A DNA stretch of 55,565 nucleotides, counting the filler, from Porpidia crustulata (taxonomy: Eukaryota): the NCBI GenBank assembly GCA_964255105.1. It is 3 parts of 3 records of this genome, joined end to end, with 100 filler letters (N's around TTAATTAATTAA, not from the genome) between each part and the next. Parts side by side here need not be neighbours in the genome. Positions count along the whole stretch, not along the records: positions 1 to 18,488 come from CAXUWE010000178.1; 2 more parts are not named here. One strand, given 5' to 3'. The position numbers were made by a program, and so were the translations under genes. The notes under the pieces were generated by a model. The model made no database searches. It was given only the letters and a program-made list of their open reading frames with translations, and was not told the origin of the DNA. The stretch's first letter is position 1; every line of letters starts with the position of its first letter. Of the stretch, positions 9,749-54,437 are shown in pieces.

Positions 9749-12700
9749 TCATACTAACCATATATTGAATTGCTTCGCGCTCGACGGGTCGATAGACGGG
9801 TATCTGACCTTCAGCGTTTCGAGATCGTTCCAACGCTCTTGTTTCATGTATATGAGCGAGAGCTGTTCCACGATCGCCAACGTTCGTGGACTATCCGCCG
9901 ATAGAATCTTCTCCTTCGCAATGACGTCCAGAACTTTCAAGCATTCCTTTTCTGCCTCCTCCATGCGTCCCATTGCCGTCCGCACGTATATGTACCCTAA
10001 CATAGCAACGGTTGAGTCTGGATGGTCTTTCGGGACAACTTTGAGCAAATCATCAAGTAGGATCTCTGCTTCAACTAATCGCCCAGCACGCACATATGCC
10101 TGCGTTAAGTTTGCTTGATTCATCATGATACCGGGATGCGCCTCACCCAGCGTGCGGCGAAGAATTGGCGCAGCTTTATTGAGGATCTCGATGGCCTCTT
10201 CGGGGCGCTGACGTACAGTGAGCACTTTAGCCAAGTCGTTCATTGACCAGAGGGTGTATGCGTGCTCCTCTCCCAGAATCCTTTTTCTGGCCGTCAGTAC
10301 GTTTGACACGAGCCGCTCGGCAGCGGGAAGGTGATCTTTAGAGACGCAGAAGCTCATACCGAGCTCATTACGCGTCATGAGAGTATCTTGATGGTTGGGG
10401 CCGAAGAGCCGCTTCCGTTTCTGGAGGACTTCTACTAGTAGGGTGCGGCTGGCGCGCTGGTCGCGGAGGTGGTGATATGTGCGGGCCAGGTTGAACATGG
10501 CGGTCAAAGTCAAAGGGTCGTCGGGGCCCAGACGCTTCAGCAGGCCCTTGACGGCACGTTCGCCGACTCGCTTGGACAAGTCAAGTTTCCCAGCAAACCA
10601 GAGGGAATTTGTCAGTTCTGAAAGAGTAACGCAATACGGAACATGTTCTGGTTCCCATGGCGGCCAGATCATCCAGTCAGTTAGTGAGGGGCGCGCATAC
10701 CAGTGGGTCTCGAGAATATTGCGTTGAGCTGAAATACATGGTAGGAGATCGAAGAGATGGAAATTAGACTGCGCAAGACTGTGCTGTGCTTGAATTGTGA
10801 GTGTGTGAAATCTGCCAAGTGCCTTGGTCCTGAATTGGATGACCGCAAGCTGATATGTGCGTGCCTGCTCCCAAAGTCCATTTTCTGCAAACACCCAGGC
10901 AAAACGCTCGATCTCTACGGCCCTTTCAGCAGCATTCGGATCGATCCCGCCGTAAAATTCTTTTAGCTCTCGCAGGCAAGCCACGATGTGAGGTAGCAAT
11001 GATCTCCGAAATCTCCGGCCCGATGCTTCCATAAGTGGAGATATGCAACGTGTAAGTACAGCAATGGCAGCATTGAGCCAGCGTTTCTGGTCTGAGTCAG
11101 AGAGTCTGTCCTTCGCCCATCGCTGAACTACCGGATGTAGCGACACAACGCCCTTCTTTGGGTCGTGGTCAATGATAGAGTAGTTATAGAGGATACTGAG
11201 TGATGTTCGCAGCCGAAATTGCGAGCCTTCATTCCACTCTGGTGGGGATTCGTGGGATCGTATCCGAGTTTCATCGCTGTCCCAAGGTCTTTTGAAGACA
11301 GCCTCTGGTATAGAGTCGAAGTGCATGAACGCGGATATATGGATCAAGTCCACAGCGTCTCTATACTCCAAAGATTTGCGACTTGCAATTCTTCGGAACG
11401 GGATCTCCCATGTTGTAATTATGTTAGCTTTATAAGCGGAGTTAATGCTTCTTGATGTGATCATTTCTTTCCTGTGCCCTGTGTAGTACCTTAAGTACAT
11501 TTCCAACGTATATATCTTCCGACGAATGCTTATGCCGGCATTGGCTAGTGCAAGTGCTAAGTAGCCAAGTTCAGACGCAATTTTTTGTGCAATCTGTCGA
11601 CTGTCTGACTTTGGAGAAGGCGATTCATCCTGGGAAAATGCGGTTTTAAGCAGGAGAGTGACGGCATCCTCCGGCTCCATACCGCCAAAGCGGAGACGGC
11701 CAGCCGTGGCATGAATGTTAACATCTGGATTGCGAGTCGTGATCAGGATGTGGCCGCTGTTTCCAACAGGAAAGTATTTCGAGACATCCATTTCAGGATC
11801 GTCAGCATTATCGATTATGAGCAACCATGGCTTCGTACATTGGGAGAGCCAATGCATACCACCTATGAAGGTTGCTCCTTTCCCCATTTGCTGGCCGAGT
11901 GAGGCAAAGTTGGTTTCTGCGTTCTCTTCGCTACTTCCATCAATCCAAAACACACCCCAGTACCTTGCTTTGTTGTCTTCTGCATATCTTAAACAGAACT
12001 GGGTCTTACCGGAGCCGCCGAGTCCATATATAACACAAACTTTGTGTCGATTAGCTTCGTCTAGGTGGCTAACTTGACCTAGCTTCTCCCGCACGACCTC
12101 CGCATGAACCCGCCTACCAGTAAAGTAGGTACTGGAGCAACGTGGGACAATGAACCATTCGTTACAATTGGATCTGTTTCCATCGTCGGACATGAGATAT
12201 CGAAGTGGTGGCTTCAACAAATCTTCTGCCTCGACTTGTCGCTCGTGTTGAAGCGCTTCCATATCATTATCCCATCTACACTGTATTAAACCAGGCGCAG
12301 CGGCGATGTATCGTGTCAATGCCTCAAGAATGACTCGATAACCGGGATCGTGAACCCCCGAGAATTTAGTCATCTCGCCATGAGTTGCAAACATACCACA
12401 TCTTTCAGCATCGTCCCATATAGGCGCTGCAGAGTCCCCATCCACAATGTGCGTGCACAAGTCACCCAACTTTGTCTTCCTTTGCTCCCATAGGTTATAA
12501 ATAGCAAAGCGTTTCATTAGCGGTGCAAATTGATCGGTGATCTCTTGCAGCATCTCTGAGCCTTTGAGAAGATTCAACTCGAACTGGCTTGGGCCTAGCC
12601 TGTTAGTGAGCGGACTTTGATGCCGTAAGAGCAAGCTCTCCTTCCGTACGCCATTGTGCGGAGTTCCTAGAAACACGATTCCATGCGTGGAGATGAACAC

Positions 12701-13192
12701 TGAGCGGAGGTGCACTACGGCCTGCGCCCGTCGGGTGGAGGAGAATGCGAGTGCTCGCTTTACAAGCAATCCTCCGAAACCATGGCACACAAAAATGATC
12801 GGCCGATTAAATGCCTCTGCAAGCTGGCGATCTGCGCATAGCTCAGCCACGAGACTATTTGCAAATGGCAATATTCGATCAGCTGAGCCGTCGCCAGGTG
12901 ACGAGAAGGCGTCGCCATTGTAGTGGTAGACGAGCACTCGGACATTGTATTGCTGATGTGGGAACAAGTCCCGGAGCCAAAGGATGCCTGACTTAGTGTC
13001 GGTCCATGCCTCAAGTCCGTTCTCGAAGATACCATGTACAGCAACAATGCTGCGAGTGGGAATAAGTTGTAGCGCCGGGAATGGGACAATATTGGTAAAT
13101 ACTCACTCAACAACAGGGGCGTTTCTGGCGGCATGCGATGAAGAATCATAAGTAGCTGTAGTGGTTGGGGCCGTTAGTTCTAAGATGCCCAT
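9749..13192 (-). CDS. Fungal NLR: SesB/PGAP1-like alpha/beta-hydrolase-fold N-terminus + NB-ARC + TPR repeats
   Basis: Exon 1 MGILELTAP...PVVD, a phase-2 intron, then IVAVHG...WLRDL, FLGTPH. Walker A GLGGSGKT, Walker B WLLIIDNAD, ILITTR, YLALAL, LHPVVQ. Kinesin-light-chain-type TPR repeats (GPDDPLTL..MFNLA, GPNHQDTL..RNELG, GEEHAYTL..MNDLA). Start codon inferred; a further upstream exon cannot be excluded. Confidence 0.9.
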
Positions 13193-13639: not shown

Positions 13640-15342
13640 ATGGCTCAGGGGTATTATCTCCTCGCCTACTTTATACTCATCGCACTTTATTGTCGGCGAC
13701 TTTTCCGCAACTATCAAACTCGCCAGGTAAGTCTTGGCATGCTCTCTCAGACGAGATGCATGCTAACATGAGAAGCAGGCCGACAAACTGTTTGCGGAGC
13801 AGCATGGATGTCTACCTGCGCCTCGAATTGAGAACCAGAGACCCTGGGGAGTAGATCGACTCGAGCAGATCTTCCGAGGCGATAGAGAATGTCGCTTGAT
13901 GGAACTCTTTCTGTTCCATTTTAGGCAAACTGGAAACACTGTCGAACAAGTTTTTATTGGCTCGACTGCCTTCGACACGATTGAACCTGCCAATCTCGAG
14001 GCCATACTTTCAACCAAATTTCAAGGTATCTATCTGACAGATACCCAACTCCACCATTACATCTGGAAATATCTAAAATCCAGCAGATTTTGATATGGGC
14101 CCGCGTCGAGACATAACACTTCCCATGTTCGGTGACGGCATCTTCACTCAAGAAGGTCCAGCATGGAAGCATTCTCGAGACTTACTACGAACTCCACTCC
14201 AGCATAAACAATACGAGAATTTAGACGTTTTCAGGCAAAGTGTAGAGGACTTGACCGACATCCTACGCAGTCAACCTGGTGTTGTTGATCTGCAGCCCCT
14301 CTTCTTCCGTCTTACCCTCGATATTACAACGGAATTTCTTTTTGGCGAGTCAGTAAATAGTCTTAAAGCACCCAAGTCCGTCGGCGAGCAAAGCTTTGGC
14401 GAAGCATTCAATACAGCCCAGGAGTTCGTAGCGACCCGCTTTCGGCTCCCTGATTTTTACTGGGCAATAGGAGGGGCTAAGTTCAAGAAGGCTTGCAACA
14501 ATGTGCACTACTTTGCGGATCAGATCATTGATCGCAATCTGTCGCGCAGCTCTGCAAAAAATCGCGTCTTTCTGGATGTTGTGGCTGAGAGCACAGCGGA
14601 TCGCGATGCTTTAAGAGGCCAAATTATCAACCTTCTCGCAGCAGGTCGAGATAGCACAGCTTGCTTGCTCACATGGACTTTCTTCCTGCTCGTTCGTCAT
14701 CCGAAGGCCCTGGAGAAGCTGCAAGAGGAAATCAATCGTAATTGCCTCGAATTAGCGAGTTTTATGCGGACAGACCTTCGAAAAATGGGCTACCTTCAAA
14801 AAGTCCTCAAAGAGACTTTACGACTGTACCCATCTGTCCCTGTAAACACCCGTACTCCAAACAAGGCTACTGTACTTCCAACTGGCGGAGGCCCAGATCG
14901 GACTGCTCCAGTGTTCATTCCGAAGGGCTCGACCGTAGCTTACTCCGTATACGCCATGCATAGACGGGTGGACCTATACGGCATGGACGCTGAGCTTTTC
15001 CGTCCAGAGAGATGGGACGAAGACATGCCGATGCACCTTAGCAAGACCAACGAAGCGTGGGGATACCTTCCTTTCAACGGAGGCCCCAGGACGTGCCTCG
15101 GAAGTAAGTCTCATTTCAACCCAGAGCATCGTGGCAAATGTACTGACTGAAGTCTTTGTTTAGTGGATTTTGCGCTTACCGAAGCCGCCTATACAGTGGT
15201 CTGCCTCCTTCGGCAATTTCCTTCAATACGATTACCAGCGGGCCAAAAGGTCGAGCTTACTGGCGTAGAGAAGCAGACCGTGACTCTCGTAATTCAATCA
15301 ACAGAAGGTTGTATGGTTGACACTACTTCTAGAGAAGAGTAG
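13640..15342 (+). CDS. Cytochrome P450, CYP52 clan (alkane/fatty-acid hydroxylase-like)
   Basis: N-terminal TM anchor, GDGIFTQEG..WKHSR, I-helix AAGRDST, ETLRLYP, PERW, heme motif FNGGPRTCLG; three introns; last exon MDFALTEA...* ends TAG at 15340-15342. Confidence 0.92.
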
Positions 15343-15396: not shown

Positions 15397-16531
15397 CTAT
15401 CGCAGCAGCTCATCTGCTTCCTGAGAGCGTTTCGAGTCTAGCATCTCAATAGCATACTTCCAACGTCGCGAGATGACCTCAGGAGCTTCCTTTGAGTACC
15501 GGATCAAAGCGGCCACAACGATTCTATATCCAGGAGAGGTGTTACTCTCGAACTTACACATGTTCACATGGTCATAGGGAAGACCGGCTCGTTCCGTATT
15601 ATCTAATATTGGTGCTGCGGAAGACTCTTCGACGACCTGCCAGGCATCAGCAGTGAAGATCTCCTTCCAGAAAGGCAGATTTACATACGAAGTCCTGGGT
15701 AATTCCCATATTCATCTTTTCCTGCTCCCAGAAGAAGAAAATATGAAATTTCTTCATGAGCGGTACAAACATGTCGGTGATATTCTGCAGCACCTCTGAG
15801 CCTTCTTGTAGGGCATCAAGAAGCTGGCCTTCGGTGTCTACGACCTTGGAGGGTGCCAAGGCTCCGATCATGCGACGAGTGGTTGAGGCGAGCTTGACTT
15901 TGTTGCTACCGTCATGAGGCGTTCCCAAGAACAAAATCCCAAATGTCGAGACGTAGATCGAATGCACGTGCTGAACATACTTGCTGGTCCTGCTTGCAGA
16001 GTACGCCAGTGCCTGTAAATAATCAAACTTTGACTCCCTTCTGCTTCTGAGAGACCTCATGCATCTTACCCGTTTCACGATAATGCCACCAAGTGAGTGG
16101 CAAATAAAGATGATCGGCCGTTGCGTCGCGTCTTCCAGCTATTCTCTCGGTCTTAATAGCCAGAGTGGTCACCATGCGGTCCAACAGGCTTACCTCGCGG
16201 TCTGCCACCAGTTCGGCGACCAACGTTTGCGCATGTTGCAGAATACGATCTGACGAGGTCTTACCCAACACTGACATTACCATCGCGTTGTAACCATAAG
16301 TCAGAACGCGAGAATTCTTCAGATGCGAGGGCAGGAGGCCGGGATCCTTGAGCCACATCTTATCTGATCCTCTCGATGTCCATGTCGTGAACGGATCGCC
16401 ATTGAGCCCATGTACGGCAACGACGCTGTGCGCATTAGTAGGCTATCGTAAACTCGCGAATGAATCTTCACATGCTCCACAATCGGATCGCTACCTCTAT
16501 ACAATTCGGTCAGGCCGGTATTTGGCGTCAT
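15397..16531 (-). CDS. Stand-alone SesB/PGAP1-like alpha/beta hydrolase, paralogous to the NLR N-terminal domain
   Basis: Five exons: MTPNTGLTELYRGSDPIVD-VVAVHGLNG..MWLKD..RVLTYGYNA..LVAELVADRE..RPIIFICHSLGGIIVKRAL..FLGTPH..FFFWEQ..VVEESSAAP..DHVNMCKF..RW..EADELLR*. Nucleophile-elbow Ser codon at 16094-16096. First intron is GC-AG (16426-16475). Confidence 0.88.
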
Positions 16532-40087: not shown

Positions 40088-42732
40088 TCAATATGTCGGG
40101 AGTGGACGTGTTACTGTGTCTGGTCTTTCACGGTTGTTGATGGTGTCAACGATTAAAATCTCAGCCCAAGACTCCCGGTCCGTGTATGGCAGAGCAACCA
40201 CAGCTTCCGCATGGTTGCCTAGTCGCCTGAGCTCAAGGTCATGAGTACCTGTTCTCGGGCGATCACTTATGATGACACTCCATTCGTTATGGACCTCAAT
40301 GCCCGAATTTGACTGGGCCGAAGCTAGAGCTGTTGATGCTGTTCTCGACATAGTAGAGGCAGCGTGTTGGCGGGATAATGATGATCTTGAAACTGGATGA
40401 CTCCGGGCGGCAAAGGAGGGTGCATGCCGTAGCGCATGACTGGTGACAAGTGCCGCATACTCTCGACGGACCCTATTTTCGAATAAACGATTGTCATGCG
40501 CGTGCTCAAAGCAGTGTTGCTGAGTCTTAAACAATCGCCAGGGGACGAATACAAAATCTGGAGGTAAAATGATATTCTGGTGAAGATCTGCAATTGTCCT
40601 GAAGGTGATCATATCCGTTGATCGTGGTTCAGGGTCTTGGACGGTACCACGGCAGGGTGCGCGAAGTGGCCGTGATACCAGCCGCGCTTCAACAGAGATT
40701 TGCCCAGGAAGAGGATCAAAAAGTTGATGAATGGCTAAGAAGAAACCACTTAGAAATTCCCGTTCCTCAGGATTGATGTTTTCTTTGATCATATGTTCCG
40801 TAGCGGCGAGACATTCGTCAACATTCATGTCGTTGAATAGACTCAGTACGTCTATTTGCCCTCCACTAAGTCTAGGAATGCTCAATGCAGCCGTAGGCAC
40901 CAAACTTCTTGCATCACTTCGGGCAAGCACTTCAAATCCTTGTTGGTAAATAGGCCGGACAGCGAAGAATGCGACATGAACGCCTGAAGTATACATGTGG
41001 CTTTTCCCAGCTTCGACTTGCATGCGTTCAAGACGTGGCAGCAGCTGACCATGGGCAACCTCCATGCTCCGAGCAAGGGCCTCGATGATCTGTGCTATCG
41101 TCGCAAAACGAAAACCCGAAGATTGAAAATGAAGGCATTCGTCTCGTGTGGCGCGACGTATGAGAAAGAGAAGTTGGCCACGGCTGGATACAGACACCGA
41201 AGAACCACGTTCCTCAAACTCCAAAGGGTTGAAGTTGGATGATTTGGAGAAGTGGTTTCGCATGCCAGCGAAGAAAGTTTGACTCCCTTTCGTCAAAGTT
41301 CCAGTCTTTACAATATCTTCGAAAAGCAGTCCAAGGTTCTCGATAGGCTCCTGGATCATGTCGGCCAAATCTCCCGCGGCGGCAAGGAATAGTTTCCTAA
41401 AAAGTTGGGAGTACTCCTCAATGTCTTCAATTCCATATGTGATCCGCGGCAATGTCATTGGCGAGATATCCTCAGACTGGAAATACTGTTTAAACCCGGC
41501 GCTAGATTGGGTAAGATTGCTCCGGTCCCGAGCACTTGCACGTATTGCAGGAATTATATCAGCAATACCCTTCCAGCAGCGTGACGCTCGATAAATCCAA
41601 CAGAATGCAGGATGCTCGACATTGAATACACCCTCAAAGGACTATCAAGAGGAAATTTAGCTAGGAATCGGTGCATAGCTTTGTTGACTCACTTGGTGGG
41701 CATCAGAATCCGTTATCTTGCAACACGGCAAAAGTCCACCTGGAGTGACCATAATTTTCCCATCGGCGTCGAAGATGGCGCAGGCAAGCGAGACTCGCTC
41801 TGCTCTTTCGGCAGCTCGCCTCCTAGACCATTGTCCGAGCCAGGCCAAAACAAAGAGGACGACACAGCACCCTAGTGCCTTTCAGCGTATTAGCTGAATG
41901 GTCCAAGCTACGATATATCAAGACTGCCTACCAGACAGAGCACAACCACAACGGTTGCACGTCTCGACAAACCATTCCTTGGACTTGCTGTACCTTCCTT
42001 GAGTCGATAGGTGGTACCCACTGTGGCGACCCAATGCATTCCAGATACCGAAGTTGCGAGCAATGCGGCACAGGCCAGTCGTTTCAGCCAGCTGTTCGTC
42101 CAAGTGGATGTGAGGTAAAATAATATCCCCATGGCGACCGTGCTTGCGACAACGGCGATGATAGCAGATCCGACCACATAGCCTACTCCATAGTTGGGAG
42201 TGTAATTCGCGATTCCACCCTGTCCCATATAATGCATGCCGCATACAGCGGCACCGGTGAACCACCCTGCGAGCAGGGTGGTCACCACATTTACATTTTC
42301 GACCACGCTGAAGAAGTAGAAAGAGAAAGCGACGACACAAATTGGCAAAAAGAACGAAGCCGCGGTGAAGCCTGGACTGTATCCGATCTGAAGTTCTGGC
42401 TCCCCGTTACCCATTTGAATTGCCCTGTTACCGATGAAGTGCATTGACCAGATGGCTACGGCCCCCATTGATGATGCAGCGGCGAGTAAAAGGTACCTCA
42501 GATAGGTCAGCATCGCCTAATGAAAAATTGGGCTTTAGAACATCGTGCGATGCAGTGATGCTTACCAGTTGTACAGACCCCGAGGTGACGTCCTCCGATG
42601 CAGCAGCTCCACCGTGGTCCATGCACCTGATAAGCTTACCAGGAACGAAAGGATGATATAGCCCGGATTATATGTGTGCGCCACGAATTGGCCCGCTGAC
42701 TCACTGAAAACTATGCTCACTAGTACTGACAT
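40088..42732 (-). CDS. MHYT-domain membrane sensor protein with a large cytoplasmic C-terminal region
   Basis: YIILSFLVS..GAWTTVELL..., AIWSMHFIGN, VCGMHYMG, VSGMHWVA repeats, followed by LACAIFDADGKIMVTPGGLLP and a soluble domain; introns near 42500-42565, 41875-41930 and 41640-41690. Confidence 0.88.
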
Positions 42733-48784: not shown

Positions 48785-50697
48785 ATGTTTTTATTTCTTC
48801 TGCTTGCCAATGTATGGCAAGGTGGCGCATGGCCAATATCGCATAGTTCTGGCGATGAATTCCCGTCATCTCCTCTTGCAAGTATACCGAGCTCGAAGCA
48901 ACTAAAGCGAGGGAACTCAACTGCACCCACAATATCTTAGCAATCTGAGCCACAAGTCCATAGAACATCTCAAATCTTAACAAGCTATGTTATTACATTA
49001 TCATTGTGTGTTTGGACAGCAATTCATCTGAATATCGTACGTTCCACAATACATATACAATAAGACGATGATGGCTAATCCATATACCATAGCCAAGACA
49101 ACATACCTCAGCCGTGAGGCATTACTTGAGAAAAACAAGATGGTTATTGACGGGTCTTTTTGCTCCTGAAATGATTGTTTATGCAGCATGGAGTCAATAC
49201 AAATCAGCCTCTCTTTTGACAAAAGCCATGAATGATTTGTTTGAGGAGACTCAGCAGCCGCGCAAGCATACATGGAGCACTGTGCATAGCTTCTATGCCT
49301 GTATGGGTGGATTCGTCATGGATACTGCCAGTCCTTCCGTGGAAATTTACACTCGAGACTCGCCTCGTCTGGCATTAGGATGTCGAGGCGTGCTTTTTGT
49401 TGCCAGACATGGAGGGCATATCCCAGACATATCGAAAGCAGATATCTTCGACCGGAGTAAAGCAGATAACGTGGGGAAATGCTTAGTGTGTCTCCAAGCT
49501 GGTTGGGCGATTATCCAATGCGTCAGCCGTCTCGTATGCCACTTACCGTTGACCTTGCTCGAAATCAACACACTTGGCCATGTCCTGTGTGCCTTTCTCA
49601 TGTATTTGTTCTGGCTTAAGAAACCGCTGGAGGTCAATGAGCCAATGGTAATAACCGGAGAATGGACCCACCCTATGTGTGCGTGGCTAGTAATGAGCGA
49701 TTCTCTCGATTCTGGTACAATCAAACGGAGTATCGAATTGTCAGGCCTGTACGTGTATCCAAGTAACACGAGGGAAGTGCCTTCTTCGACGGGATGGTCT
49801 CCAGAGCTTGAGTTGGACTTGACATGTCTCGCCATTGAGCGCACAGCTGAGACCAATGTAGACGCAACGGTCTCAGAAACAGTTTGTGAGAATACGGTTC
49901 TCAAAGTTGATGAACAAGTCCAAACTTTTGCGAAAAATCCGGATCCTTCGCTCGTGTGCTTGAAAGACAACGAGGTACTGAGTGGTACGGTGTTCGGGCT
50001 TCGACCGAATTTCGAGGCGAGGGAAGGCAGCATTGTAAAAAGCGATTTACGAACGCGTATACTTAGCCTAGATCGGGCCGCTATCACAAGATGGCGACTG
50101 GCCTCGGTTTTCATCTCTGAACATCCCAGCATTCTTACAGGAGTTGACTGAATGCAAGACCCATCAGAAGGGCCTTTGATACTCGATGAGTTTGAGTTCT
50201 CAGGCCTCGTAATGCTGGAGGTACCAGACTGGCCCGGCCTCGATCAATTGTCTGAACATACAACTTCGACTGTTGCAAAACTGTGTGCAGCGACGACCTT
50301 ATACGGCGGCATCCATGTAGGAGCCTGGAATTCGGTCTTTCCCACTGCGAGCGAGTGCCTGGGTTGGAGAATGTCCGCTGGGTTCATCACTGGCTCTGGT
50401 CTGGCGGTCAGCATCGTTGCATTGATGAGACACTGGAAAAATCAGCAAAACGGGAAAGATGCGGTTAGAAGTTTCAGTCATCGGTATCTGTCGATGAGCC
50501 CGAGAACACAACATGCGATGATGACCGGATTCAGGGAATTTGTTTTCTGTGCCCATAACTTGATGATTGTGGGTATTGTTCCGACATTTATTGTGGCACG
50601 GCTCTACCTCGTTGCGGAAGCGTTCATGAGTCTGCGCAGTCTACCCATTGAGGCGTATCAAACACCTGCTTGGACGCAGTGGATACCTGCCCTTTGA
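48785..50697 (+). pseudogene. Probable pseudogene of a fungal multi-pass membrane protein family (..CVWTAIHLNIP..APE..FYACMGGF..DRSKAD..LTLLEI..WLKKP..ARLYLVAEAF.SLRSLP..AY.T..W..IP)
   Basis: One reading frame from ATG 48785, through one intron after HLNI, to TGA 50697, broken by in-frame TAG 48938-48940 and TGA 50149-50151. Confidence 0.78.
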
Positions 50698-52637
50698 TTC
50701 TACCTTCCAAGGTTATCTAGTAGCCTACCATGGTTCCGCAAACCTATCAAGGACCGATGGCGAACGCGGTTGATTTACTTGACCTGATACAATACAACTT
50801 TCCATAGACACTGCTTTCAATCGACTCCCCGGCCAGCAAGAGCACAGACGGAATTCCAACAGTAGTTTGCCTCCAAGGGGTAGCGACTACAGATGTCAGG
50901 TATTTTACGGAGTGGAATACATATCAGGAGTTCCTTTTTCTAGATATTGGGCAGCCGACTGTTGGAGACCATTGATGATCACACGTCAGCACCGCCTCAA
51001 CCAATTGTGACAGGCTGAACGGTCTCTGATGGCCTTTAAATCCTCGGAATCACGACTTGTACCTCCACATTTCCTGCCAGTCTAGCGAGGTATTTGAGCT
51101 CGAAATTCGCTCGAAATGCAGTTCCTAATACAATGTTATAGACATGCTGTGTGCACAATAGGCCTGTTACGTGATCCACGGCAGAAAGCACATATCTAAT
51201 CATCATCCTACCAAGTTCCTGAAAATCCTTTATCAAATCGAAAGAATCTACCCCCCCTGCACCGCTAGATGGCATGGGCATAAGAACTGTCCTGAAAACA
51301 GTCTACGTGTGTCGTCTCCTCAACCAAATACTAGAGAAATGTTAAAGCGATCACGAATGATGAAGGAAGGACGTAGAGACTCGTGCGGGTAAAGAATTGG
51401 AATGGTGAAGAACAATCTTTCTAAAAATCCATTGGAAATGTACAGATGTGCAAGACATGTCTGCTAAGACTCTAGGCCGAATTAGCGCTGAATTTGGGCC
51501 TCTGATTGGGCGCGGGGGCCAGCCCCATGCGATCTGGGACCACCCTAATAATCGTCTTTAAGCACACTAATCGCAATCTACACATATAGCATGCAGAATC
51601 GTCGATACGGCGCAAGGATCATCGTAGCTTTATGGCCGCCTGCAGCACAGCAAACATGCCGTCATTTCCATTATCACTCTGAGAAGCGAGAACTTGACGA
51701 CCCCTGGAAAGTGGAAGCGATCAACATACACAAAGTCATATTCAATCCCAGTGCCACGGAAAGTGTAGCGTCCGAAGCATCTGAGAGTGGCCAACACGTG
51801 TAAACAAAGATGATGGCTATCGATTGCGCTGCGCCCTAGTGTGTGCCCCATCCCCGGATCTGTCGAATGTGGATCGACTTGGATTTTGGGCGTAATCGGC
51901 CGTATTCTTTCCAGACCCAGTTAGAGACAGGCGCAATCTGGCATCATGGCGTGGTACTTTAGTGGAATGTCAATGTGTGAATCGGGCTGTCGTCAGATCT
52001 AAGGGTCTCGCTGTTCAAAATACATGTCTCAGTGTCGATTCCTACAACACCTACTGAATGGGTGTATATTGACAGACATTTCCAATTACTAATTACTCCT
52101 TCTCAGACTGTCAGTGTATGATTTGCAAGGCTTTTATATCTTATGACGAGTAAAATTGGGCACTTCCGAGGACCAAAACTACCCTCACCACCATCCACAC
52201 ATCACCATTTACCAGTACCATATAATTTGACATGAGCAGGGATTTGCGGGGGCATAACCGACAATATCCTTGCGATCCGCCCATTCGGTAGCCGAGGAAG
52301 ATGCAATGGTTACCTGACTTTAAACAACCACCGTAATGAAGTACCTAAGCAGTAGTGTTGAGCCTGATAGTACAATGCTACGAGTCTATCATCATACTAC
52401 GTAGACCCCGAAGCCCCAGCCTTTGACTGCGCTTCATGCGCGCCTTTCCTGTTGCATTCTTTCTCATTGGTCCCTTCCTTTTTCATGAGACATCTTCTCA
52501 CCGACGACAACGCATGAATGTTTGATGTTGCGTGTTTGCTACAAGCACCGTGCCGCTTGATACCGGTGGGGTCTTCTGACTGCTCCCTCTCCTCGCTCAT
52601 CGCAGTCTCTTCCTCTCACTCTCTCACTCTCTTCAGC

Positions 52638-54437
52638 ATGCCGAACAAATACTCCCATGCGCTCGTTCTCTCTCACTACGAGGCACGAGGTCTTGTTGAC
52701 TTTTACAATCACCCCAATCGACAGACTCCAACGACTTCTCCCGTCTCGGTGGATAGAACCCATTTTGAGCATCGCCAGCAAACTCCTCGAGTCACAAGGT
52801 ACACGCCTGCCCCTCCTCCAGTGACCAATACTCCTCCGATCACAACCTCGACACGACAACCATCGATAGCCTCGAAACCTACAACGCCAGTCATCGCTGC
52901 ACCCCGCACCGTCTTCGACGATTCTCCCCCATCTACCCCGGAGCCACCCCGCTACAGCATCGCTCGGAGATATGCTCCCTCCACAACCCGACGTTCCCGC
53001 CGTTCGTCCCTCGATTGGGAGCCTCGCCTCCCAAGCAGGACAACTCCGCCTGCTACGTCTCGAGGCTACAGACACATCGAATCAGATCCATTGGCTCCGC
53101 CCCGCTTGCCTCCCGACCACAAATCTATTCCTCCAATCACCACAACTCATCCACAGCCATTAGGCTTGAAAGAGCTATCCCAAAATACCATAAGACCGTT
53201 CAAAGTATCTTTGGAACATGTGGAGGTTAGTCCAACGACAAAGACGGCACCCCATTCACTGGGATTGAAAGAGCTGCACCAGAATACCATAAAACCATTC
53301 CAAGTATCTTTGGAACATGTGGAGGCTGGTCCAACGACCAAACCGGCACCCCGTTCACTGGGATTAAAAGAACTTCTGAGAGGCATACAGGCGCCACACC
53401 GTGTATCCTTGGATTCAAATGATGCTCGTCCAAGCATTTCGAATTTGTTTGCACCACGTCCTCGAACTGCTGGTGCTACTGAAACATCTACATCGCCAAT
53501 ACCATCCCGTCCACAGACTCTCACCCCTGCTCTGTCGTCCCAATCTAGCCGCTCATCCCATTGTACTACCGACTCAATAGTAACACAAATCTACGCTCCA
53601 GAATCCATATCTCAACCACCAACTCCGCCGCGGTCATCGGCCTCCTTTGAAACGGCAATATTCGCTCCTCCAGCCTCTCCGTCCAAGAGTTTACCACATC
53701 ACGAACCTCCAGCTATACCTCCTCGATCATCGTCCATCCCTAGGCCACGCAGTTCGTCAGCTCATCATCCTGACTTTGACGCATTCAGCAGTACCAATTC
53801 CCCAACTATGAGCTCACCAAATTCGACATTCACAAATTCATCCTCTTTTCACCAAACTCCTCGCACATCCTACTCTCGCATTACGCCTTCACTTCCTTCG
53901 AAATCCCCTGAGCGCGAATTCGACTTTCATCCTGACAAAGCTTCTGCGATTAATCCGGAGGTTGTCCCGTTTTCTCACGAGCCTGGCGAGCCGTGGGGCG
54001 CTCTTGAAGAGCTCCCGGCCATATTTCGTGTATCGATGGATTCGGAGCAGTATACCTTGGACGTACCGTCTACTCGCAGTTCCTCCTTTGACGAAGCCGC
54101 CCCACCCCCTATAACCCGAACGCCTCGCACCAAGGGCCTCAATCCCACAACAACTAAAAAGCCACGTAGAATGTCCCTCACCCTATTCAGGCCTGATTGT
54201 GAAGCCATCTTGTACGATCAGACAACTTCCGGACCCGCGCCGATCCCCATTACCACGGTCAAAGATGCAAGAATCCAGGAGAATAGTGCTGTGATGATTG
54301 ACAAGGAGTACGGGAAGAAAACCGGGAAGAGGACGAGTTGGGGCTTAATGGGTCGAGTCAGCGCCGTGAGAGATCCGTTCGAGGATAAGAGGCGAGGAAG
54401 AGGATTCAGTCGGGCTGTTGGGACGGGGTTCATGTAG
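52638..54437 (+). CDS. Pro/Ser/Thr-rich, probably disordered protein of unknown function with three 33-aa repeats
   Basis: About 600-codon uninterrupted ORF; codon-periodic internal repeats; no recognisable folded domain. Confidence 0.7.
   Translation: MPNKYSHALVLSHYEARGLVDFYNHPNRQTPTTSPVSVDRTHFEHRQQTPRVTRYTPAPPPVTNTPPITTSTRQPSIASKPTTPVIAAPRTVFDDSPPSTPEPPRYSIARRYAPSTTRRSRRSSLDWEPRLPSRTTPPATSRGYRHIESDPLAPPRLPPDHKSIPPITTTHPQPLGLKELSQNTIRPFKVSLEHVEVSPTTKTAPHSLGLKELHQNTIKPFQVSLEHVEAGPTTKPAPRSLGLKELLRGIQAPHRVSLDSNDARPSISNLFAPRPRTAGATETSTSPIPSRPQTLTPALSSQSSRSSHCTTDSIVTQIYAPESISQPPTPPRSSASFETAIFAPPASPSKSLPHHEPPAIPPRSSSIPRPRSSSAHHPDFDAFSSTNSPTMSSPNSTFTNSSSFHQTPRTSYSRITPSLPSKSPEREFDFHPDKASAINPEVVPFSHEPGEPWGALEELPAIFRVSMDSEQYTLDVPSTRSSSFDEAAPPPITRTPRTKGLNPTTTKKPRRMSLTLFRPDCEAILYDQTTSGPAPIPITTVKDARIQENSAVMIDKEYGKKTGKRTSWGLMGRVSAVRDPFEDKRRGRGFSRAVGTGFM
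53160..53420 (+). repeat. 99-bp coding tandem repeat (LGLKEL...VSL[E/D])
   Basis: LGLKEL starts at 53160, 53259 and 53358 (99-nt period); the first two units are highly similar. Confidence 0.85.

Follow-up and report, generated by a model that had tools for sequence, protein, structure and literature searches.

A fungal NLR clade whose SesB-like domain lacks the nucleophile serine, clustered with a cytochrome P450 and an intact sister hydrolase

At the N-termini of ascomycete NLRs, SesB-like domains belong to the most frequent types, and in the available portions of the surveys they are treated as active lipases: They have been classed with effectors that act directly as enzymes, as opposed to adaptors (Dyrka et al. 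2014, PMC4986451), and grouped with hydrolases (Daskalov review, PMC10197012), and an active-site serine motif is described for all SesB-like proteins (Graziani et al. 2004, PMC516043). The locus considered here encodes an NLR with the domain order of the known sesB-like/NB-ARC/TPR receptors, and its hydrolase-like domain falls among Ser-bearing SesB NLR domains in our tree. It differs from the published sesB-like NLRs, as the available parts of PMC4986451 and PMC10197012 present them, in that the nucleophile is missing clade-wide and an intact sister enzyme is encoded separately. The het-eN/sesA/sesB locus of Nectria haematococca likewise combines an NLR with a stand-alone SesB hydrolase, thought to be the effector; according to the accessible text of PMC3321046 and PMC516043, the pairing element there is a short amyloid motif, whereas here an entire hydrolase domain is common to both proteins and a P450 is present as well. 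The design is a variation on the known NLR-plus-clustered-effector arrangement.

Comparisons can also be drawn with more distant systems. In the caspase-8/cFLIP pair, an active enzyme assembled on a signalling platform is regulated by its catalytically dead paralogue; the fold is unrelated to that of our proteins, and here the dead copy sits within the receptor. Members of the EDS1 family join a class-3 lipase-like domain to an EP domain, and Pfam detects neither domain on our NLR or on P0134, an orthologue of its stand-alone sister hydrolase. The lipase-like proteins EDS1 and PAD4/SAG101 form heterodimers that act in immune signalling downstream of NLRs, with catalysis partly dispensable (the available text of bioRxiv 10.1101/2021.12.15.472806 reports the EDS1 triad to be dispensable in Arabidopsis and needed in N. 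benthamiana). EDS1 belongs to another lipase family, is unfused to an NLR and keeps its triad, so the analogy with EDS1 drawn in a preliminary description of this DNA stands in a loose sense. The Bcvic1/Bcvic2 and plp-1/sec-9 pairs consist of NACHT-ankyrin or patatin NLRs with a SNARE partner, are highly polymorphic and include neither a P450 nor a sister hydrolase; a lipase domain acting without catalysis appears as speculation in the part of the Bcvic preprint available (bioRxiv 10.1101/2022.04.03.486892). Catalytic loss in SesB-like domains is not described in the accessible portions of PMC9815663, PMC12258605, PMC12881547 and PMC13449251. P450s were absent from, or unrelated in, the fungal-immunity literature searched by term, and no description of an NLR–P450–hydrolase cluster was found in titles and abstract openings; the cluster is apparently undescribed, and supplementary tables of the surveys may list these NLRs as sesB-like.

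The window, by which we mean the whole stretch of DNA analysed (55,565 nucleotides from Porpidia crustulata, filler included), is fungal, with its closest named homologues in lichen-forming genera such as Xylographa and Icmadophila. A six-frame scan finds only two elbow-type motifs in it, VCHGFGG and ICHSLGG, in the NLR and in the stand-alone hydrolase gene, respectively (Table 1). The preliminary description had called the stand-alone gene the neighbour of the NLR; the two are in fact separated by a P450 gene, whose orientation is divergent relative to the NLR and convergent relative to the hydrolase. The interval between the NLR and P450 start codons is possibly a shared promoter, and the divergent orientation recurs in most scanned loci. 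All exon models are predictions from splice signals and orthologue lengths, and that of the stand-alone gene gives the length usual among its named orthologues. The NLR reading frame runs uninterrupted from 13049 to 9749 after a short first exon, in keeping with the earlier statement that the NLR ORF is otherwise intact. A GC donor is predicted for intron 1 of the hydrolase (16426-16475). Elsewhere in the window, long ORFs without a Pfam match lie at 40088-41458, 49114-50151 and 52518-54437, the last in a stretch of strong GC skew (-0.30).

Table 1. Features of the three-gene locus (window positions) and, in the last row, the short-motif segments at related loci (positions within each locus record).
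Feature	Position	Strand	Basis
NLR gene, 1128 aa: Ser-less SesB-like domain + NB-ARC + TPR	9749..13192	-	Gene model, Pfam, 177 homologues
NLR predicted exons	13192-13107 and 13049-9749	-	GT-AG intron; N-terminus resembles P0006, P0007, P0019
Putative pseudo-hydrolase domain, SesB-like alpha/beta-hydrolase fold; terminal long helix runs to NB-ARC	12212..13049	-	AlphaFold2, fold matches
Gly119 codon GGT, nucleophile position	12779..12781	-	Sequence, alignment column counts
Glu38, oxyanion loop HG-I-F-E (active relatives HG-L-x-G: Gly)	13022..13024	-	Column counts
Oxyanion HG, His codon	13034-13036	-	Sequence
Span with retained presumed-triad acid and His (Glu217 12485-12487, His252 12380-12382)	12380..12487	-	Column counts; roles from motif position
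447-bp interval between divergent NLR and P450 start codons	13193..13639		Gene models
509-aa cytochrome P450 with hydrophobic N-terminus and the heme motif FNGGPRTCLG	13640..15342	+	Gene model, Pfam
P450 predicted exons	13640-13726, 13779-14025, 14087-15103, 15164-15342	+	
Stand-alone SesB-like/DUF676 serine hydrolase, 306 aa, HGLNG / CHSLGG / WE / DH intact	15397..16531	-	Gene model
Stand-alone hydrolase exons	16531-16476 (GC donor), 16425-16194, 16138-16070, 16012-15689, 15636-15397	-	Predicted
Ser111 codon TCA, nucleophile of stand-alone hydrolase	16094..16096	-	Sequence; Ser in 54/55 of clade
Short-motif NLR segments	L022:9749-10210, L033:7280-7798, L034:1795-2154, L038:206-616, L042:6468-6926		

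Judged by its domain architecture, the NLR is a predicted fungal immune-type receptor, with a central NB-ARC containing a P-loop and C-terminal superstructure-forming repeats of the TPR type. Its Pfam matches comprise a weak Abhydrolase_6 (E 2e-4), NB-ARC above cut-off (E 3e-8), TPR_12 (E 4e-34) and TPR_10 (E 2e-27); the Walker A (GLGGSGKT) and Walker B (LLIIDNAD) motifs noted earlier are in place, the former in 113 of the 120 homologues listed. The N-terminal domain has the fold of alpha/beta hydrolases and a DUF676/SERAC1-related sequence, and shares 44% identity with the stand-alone model over the best tblastn segment. AlphaFold2 models it with a pLDDT of 86 and a pTM of 0.84, and its fold matches are lipases and phospholipases (best Z 19.3, rmsd 3.1 over 223 aligned residues; PGAP1 Z 14.8). 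What it lacks is the active-site serine of SesB-like proteins, replaced in the window by Gly119.

The stand-alone protein, by the same kind of evidence, appears to be an intact, putatively active serine hydrolase: Its clade keeps Ser in 54/55, Glu in 54/54, His in 55/55 and the oxyanion Gly in 51/51, and P0134 matches DUF676 above cut-off (E 6e-6). No sequence match of the hydrolase to solved structures was found, nor did Pfam detect an amyloid motif (sigma, PP, HRAM) on P0134 or the NLR. The window hydrolase stops at the last helix of the domain (ELLR-stop), as do its closest full-length orthologues, and the core 306-aa protein has no C-terminal extension able to carry such a motif. Public records give many orthologues of the stand-alone protein the label "ribonuclease-like protein p/mrp subunit", which looks like a propagated misannotation. 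The P450, whose heme motif is present in 114 of the 120 matches listed, has orthologues annotated as "cytochrome P450 alkane hydroxylase" in their source records, and its nearest solved structures are distant; we liken it to CYP52, that is, to a CYP52-clan alkane/fatty-acid hydroxylase.

The preliminary description had set the Gly codon of the NLR against the Ser codon of the stand-alone gene, with the oxyanion HG, the acidic WE residue and the C-terminal His kept in both. Both codons were re-read on the minus strand and agree with that account, as do the retained residues, the acid and His being Glu215 and His250 in the stand-alone protein. It had further proposed an alignment of orthologues, and a homologue search with the NLR returned 177 proteins, the named genera among them belonging, as we place them, to Lecanoromycetes, Dothideomycetes, Leotiomycetes, Sordariomycetes and Eurotiomycetes. 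Among the 120 listed, the nucleophile column holds Gly in 94 (including the window protein), Glu in 9, Asp in 3 and a gap in 14, so that Ser occurs in 0 of the 106 with a residue at this position. Because candidates in this search had been gathered by words of the Ser-less query, and the search was biased to that extent, it was repeated with the Ser-bearing P0134 as the query and without the word index, taking the best 150 of 10,194 matches; the clade pattern was unchanged. Pooling gave 275 domains past the coverage filter, of which 9 without an elbow match were dropped, and a FastTree phylogeny of the remaining 266, with the nucleophile column masked, separated three groups. At the nucleophile column, the NLR-type clade (n = 139) has Gly in 123, Glu in 11, Asp in 4, Ala in 1 and Ser in none; the stand-alone clade (n = 55) has Ser in 54 and Leu in 1; and the outgroup (n = 71, many of them longer SesB NLRs) has Ser in 70 and Cys in 1. 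Three apparent "Gly" elbows in the outgroup were rejected as pattern matches on the HGLGG loop, in agreement with the alignment column. The absence of Ser throughout the clade excludes a strain-specific lesion, named at the outset as grounds for refutation, or a sequencing error in the window. The NLR-type clade contains three or more paralogous subgroups; domains with Glu as the elbow residue form a group with Xylariales and Sordariales names among its members, and Asp occurs in two separate parts of the tree.

Clean switches between the sister clades are confined to two columns, that of the nucleophile and the one three residues past the oxyanion HG. The latter, a second clade-wide change that the preliminary description had not included, is Glu in 105/116 of the Ser-less domains (Glu38 in the window), as against Gly in 51/51 stand-alone proteins and 65/66 of the outgroup. 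The rest of the presumed triad is largely retained in the Ser-less clade (acid 137/139, His 133/139). The segment from GTPH to the next motif, which is probably the lid, is shorter in the core of this clade (median 28 vs 37 residues) and also less conserved. Such a pattern raises the question of whether the domain has altered its chemistry rather than lost it, with the His-Glu pair activating water or substrate, or with Glu38 or an elbow Asp/Glu serving as nucleophile. Ser-independent enzymes of the alpha/beta-hydrolase fold do exist, and the coupling of Glu38 with Ser loss, the widespread His and the acidic elbow residue of 15/139 domains would suit this reading; but the His is replaced in 6/139 and Glu38 in 11/116, the elbow drifts among Gly, Glu, Asp and Ala in a manner consistent with relaxed chemistry, and an intact sister enzyme is kept beside the NLR in the cluster, and we regard altered chemistry as improbable.

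An estimate of dN/dS on the domain, also proposed at the outset, indicates purifying selection. Pairwise NG86 values from six informative, non-independent pairs are 0.10-0.15 for the Ser-less domain, 0.10-0.15 for NB-ARC and 0.15-0.25 for TPR (two further pairs were near-identical and uninformative, and two containing introns were not computed). Values this low rule out a decaying domain, and the pairwise ratios give no sign of diversifying selection on it. The Gly codon is GGY at 15/23 loci, one transition away from Ser, and yet Ser is never seen, whereas Asp, Glu and Ala are; this hints, short of a formal test, at selection against regaining Ser. Thus, of the preliminary interpretation of this domain as a pseudoenzyme, the conserved Ser-less domain is firmly borne out, and the lack of catalysis is read from motifs; on those motifs, the NLRs would carry an ancient pseudoenzyme domain throughout the clade.

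The origin of the two copies was addressed with an IQ-TREE phylogeny of 58 sequences in which both diagnostic columns were masked, rooted on distant SesB domains (intron read-through leaves four of the eight distant outgroup rows misaligned at the elbow). All 20/20 dead domains (SH-aLRT 99.4) are sister to all 14/14 stand-alones (90.4), with a joint value of 99.8, and the two clades together nest among Ser-bearing SesB domains. FastTree agrees with this placement except for an outlier, the Gly sequence P0413, which falls just outside the dead clade. The first intron has the same position and phase in the window's NLR and stand-alone hydrolase, and the free enzyme ends at the helix end that in the NLR leads to NB-ARC, i.e., where the linker begins. 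From the sister clades, the common first intron and the matching end, we infer that the effector domain of the receptor was duplicated and that the copies then divided the labour between them.

NLR, P450 and hydrolase form a conserved three-gene cluster across many fungi. In ten named genomes (Icmadophila, Squamulea, Ikaeria, Bathelium, Zopfia, Melanomma, Clohesyomyces, Lojkania, Westerdykella and Lophiostoma), the NLR and the hydrolase are two accessions or locus tags apart; this spacing was found in 5/5 genomes looked up (Zopfia, Melanomma, Clohesyomyces, Lojkania and Westerdykella), and the middle accession is a P450 in 3/3 checked. These pairs were preselected for likely co-location and therefore show that the cluster recurs, not how frequent it is. 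NLR and P450 also occur consecutively in three Aspergillus species (A. steynii, A. melleus and A. turcosus) and in Tothia, Ustulina, Hypoxylon argillaceum, Phaeosphaeriaceae sp. PMI808, Xylographa soralifera and Fonsecaea pedrosoi. Exceptions are Lachnellula subtilissima, with NLR and hydrolase five accessions apart, and Xylographa bjoerkii, whose close orthologues lie on different contigs with locus tags far apart; for Alectoria fallacina, X. trunciseda and Lecanora helva, the tags of the NLRs and hydrolases listed are also far apart, and the proteins come from different paralogue groups. Merged public gene models include P0207 (Talaromyces atroroseus UA08_08098), which joins a P450 to the hydrolase, and P0168 (Alectoria sarmentosa), which joins the hydrolase to a piece of the NLR domain.

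A less biased sample comes from a metagenome scan in which 67 loci were chosen by NB-ARC patterns alone. Ser-less NLRs with some flank occur at 28 of the 67, not counting five further ones that are short or truncated, and the 28 fall into 18 groups at 90% DNA identity. The P450 is present at 16/18 groups, the remaining two having <2 kb upstream, and the hydrolase at 14/16 informative groups (in one of them cut by a contig end), two groups being uninformative. Gene order and orientation vary slightly among loci. At locus L001, the hydrolase is reduced to a ~125-bp 3' remnant (L001:7355-7482) beside an intact NLR and P450, and the survival of only this last part suggests a recent deletion; the NLR there remains open and constrained (dN/dS 0.145 vs the window). 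At L008/L009, no hydrolase was seen in flanks of 10 kb upstream and, at most, 2.9 kb downstream. Absences of the hydrolase at metagenome loci hold for the flanking sequence covered. At the seven loci with Ser-bearing SesB NLRs, neither partner was seen, with flanks >6 kb in two only. Six other ORFs of the window match none of the 67 loci, from which we conclude that the cluster moves as a unit; set against the conserved linkage, this also argues that the neighbourhood is not due to chance. At one locus (L001:17536-23249), a NACHT-type NLR gene and a Ser-bearing SesB-like gene form a separate pair, arranged head-to-head, at 4-10 kb downstream from the cluster.

The relationships described so far bear on a further possibility, namely that the Ser-less domain is an integrated decoy that mimics the free hydrolase, the real target of an antagonist effector or inhibitor, with binding to the decoy tripping the NLR. 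The stand-alone hydrolase does have the dead domain as its closest paralogue, and guard pairs of a fungal NLR and an adjacent gene (Bcvic1/Bcvic2, plp-1/sec-9) are discussed in the available part of bioRxiv 10.1101/2022.04.03.486892. A decoy would, however, sit oddly in the N-terminal effector position, most members having no other output domain; the pairwise ratios lack the diversifying signal, and the tighter link of the NLR with the P450 would go unexplained. We judge this reading very improbable.

Several NLRs of the same NB-ARC clade lack the hydrolase domain altogether (L022, L023, L033, L034, L038 and L042, the last of them broken). They begin instead with a short segment carrying a motif like GHxFxxxxIxGxxVHxGDxY, which to our eye resembles HET-s-type amyloid repeats and lacks a Pfam match in 4/4 searched; it is possibly an amyloid signalling motif, whose partner gene was not seen in the flanks. 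The P450 adjoins the short-motif NLR at 5/6 of these loci, L038 being too short, and no hydrolase was found in the flanks of the six, which extend 10 kb on both sides only at L022/L023. These NLRs nest within the dead-domain clade with weak support (0.52), and the loci, from three metagenome records, probably reflect a single replacement event. Since they keep the P450 while no hydrolase is seen, the dead domain behaves as an exchangeable module for signalling, and the P450 goes with the sensor part. A related NB-ARC–TPR NLR with a helical N-terminal region (L039:1459-7295; weak PigL_N, E 0.12) likewise lies divergently to a P450 that is 48% identical and broadly of the same type. Three Ser-less SesB/NB-ARC/TPR proteins from separate records, P0060, P0084 (Tothia) and P0088 (Verruconis), bear a C-terminal HET domain, which may be a real fusion or a merged gene model; the HET-bearing Tothia NLR adjoins a P450, and none of the 67 loci showed a HET gene next to its NLR. 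Taken together, these arrangements suggest that the P450 belongs with the sensor part, the dead/live hydrolase pair being one of several outputs.

The same modules count against a purely metabolic or detoxification unit of P450 and esterase, with the NLR-like protein as a regulator or scaffold that has no part in non-self recognition or cell death and whose dead domain may hold the hydrolase inactive instead of activating it. Conservation across several fungal classes and the low dN/dS of the TPR region would fit such a unit, the latter contrasting with hypervariable allorecognition NLRs as the accessible literature portrays them. The NLR–P450 core, on the other hand, also bears modules of immune type (the amyloid-like motif, the helical domain of L039 and HET in three proteins), and we attach only a very slight probability to the metabolic reading.

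We favour, at about even odds (a probability of roughly 0.5), a reading in which a SesB-type effector gave rise, by duplication, to an adaptor that is a pseudoenzyme tethered to the receptor and to an active hydrolase that is free, while the P450 belongs to the sensing side. It builds on four computed results: the fixed Ser loss, purifying selection, the sister relationship and the three-gene linkage. In an ancestral SesB–NB-ARC–TPR receptor, the enzymatic effector domain would have been duplicated; the free copy would have retained catalysis, while the tethered copy, having lost the nucleophile and gained an acidic oxyanion-loop residue, would have died as an enzyme and become a non-catalytic adaptor or regulatory subunit. 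The P450 is conjecturally placed as the object that the TPR/NB-ARC part monitors, either as the protein itself or through an oxidised lipid that it makes. The receptor would then oligomerise, and clustered pseudo-hydrolase domains would recruit and switch on the sister hydrolase through a presumed like-with-like contact, regulation running from the dead copy to the live one; cleavage of a lipid ester by the activated hydrolase would constitute the putative defence or cell-death output. The evidence points to such a partnership with the sister hydrolase, a more specific role than the "lipid binding or scaffold" of the preliminary description.

Several observations count against an adaptor. A constrained NLR persists without a visible intact hydrolase at L001 and L008/L009; His and Glu are kept at 96-99%, beyond the obvious need of a pure adaptor; X. 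bjoerkii and Lachnellula subtilissima break the linkage; and the domain replacement is probably one event, in a weakly supported group. Linkage alone, moreover, is not evidence of contact between NLR and hydrolase. A predicted complex of the two Icmadophila proteins (P0019, residues 20-312, and P0129), run without alignments or control folds, scored 0.01 and carries no weight either way. The retained residues would also suit a ligand-binding module, in which the Ser-less pocket binds an oxidised lipid that the P450 and the hydrolase produce or set free, thereby gating the NLR. Non-catalytic alpha/beta-hydrolase receptors of the GID1, NDRG and neuroligin types are known; HG, Glu and His are kept at 92-99% with a new conserved Glu presumably next to the pocket, the two enzymes would make a two-step lipid pathway, and the domain is under strong purifying selection. 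Yet the presumed lid is shorter and less conserved than in the free enzyme, the P450 linkage persists where the dead domain has been replaced, and the NLR would be left without an evident output domain. On balance, ligand binding seems unlikely.

For the tethered adaptor with its free sister enzyme, the conserved cluster suggests a signalling module in which the dead copy helps to control the live one. A whole clade without the nucleophile alters the picture of SesB-like domains as active lipases and offers a clear case of an effector domain split into dead tethered and live free copies. To our knowledge, hardly any fungal NLR has a known trigger or output; because this cluster names a candidate input (the P450) and a candidate output (the 306-aa hydrolase), a minimal pathway could be rebuilt with three genes. 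More tentatively, and at somewhat less than even odds, the cluster may represent a new mode of fungal NLR signalling, in which a P450 or an oxidised lipid is sensed and the signal is relayed by a pseudoenzyme–enzyme pair of the same fold in place of a built-in enzyme or an amyloid motif. If that is true, the NLR–P450 pair would be a conserved sensor core into which outputs are plugged (dead/live hydrolase, amyloid-like motif, HET, helical domains), and it would indicate, for the first time in a fungal NLR, a trigger that is a small molecule or linked to a P450.
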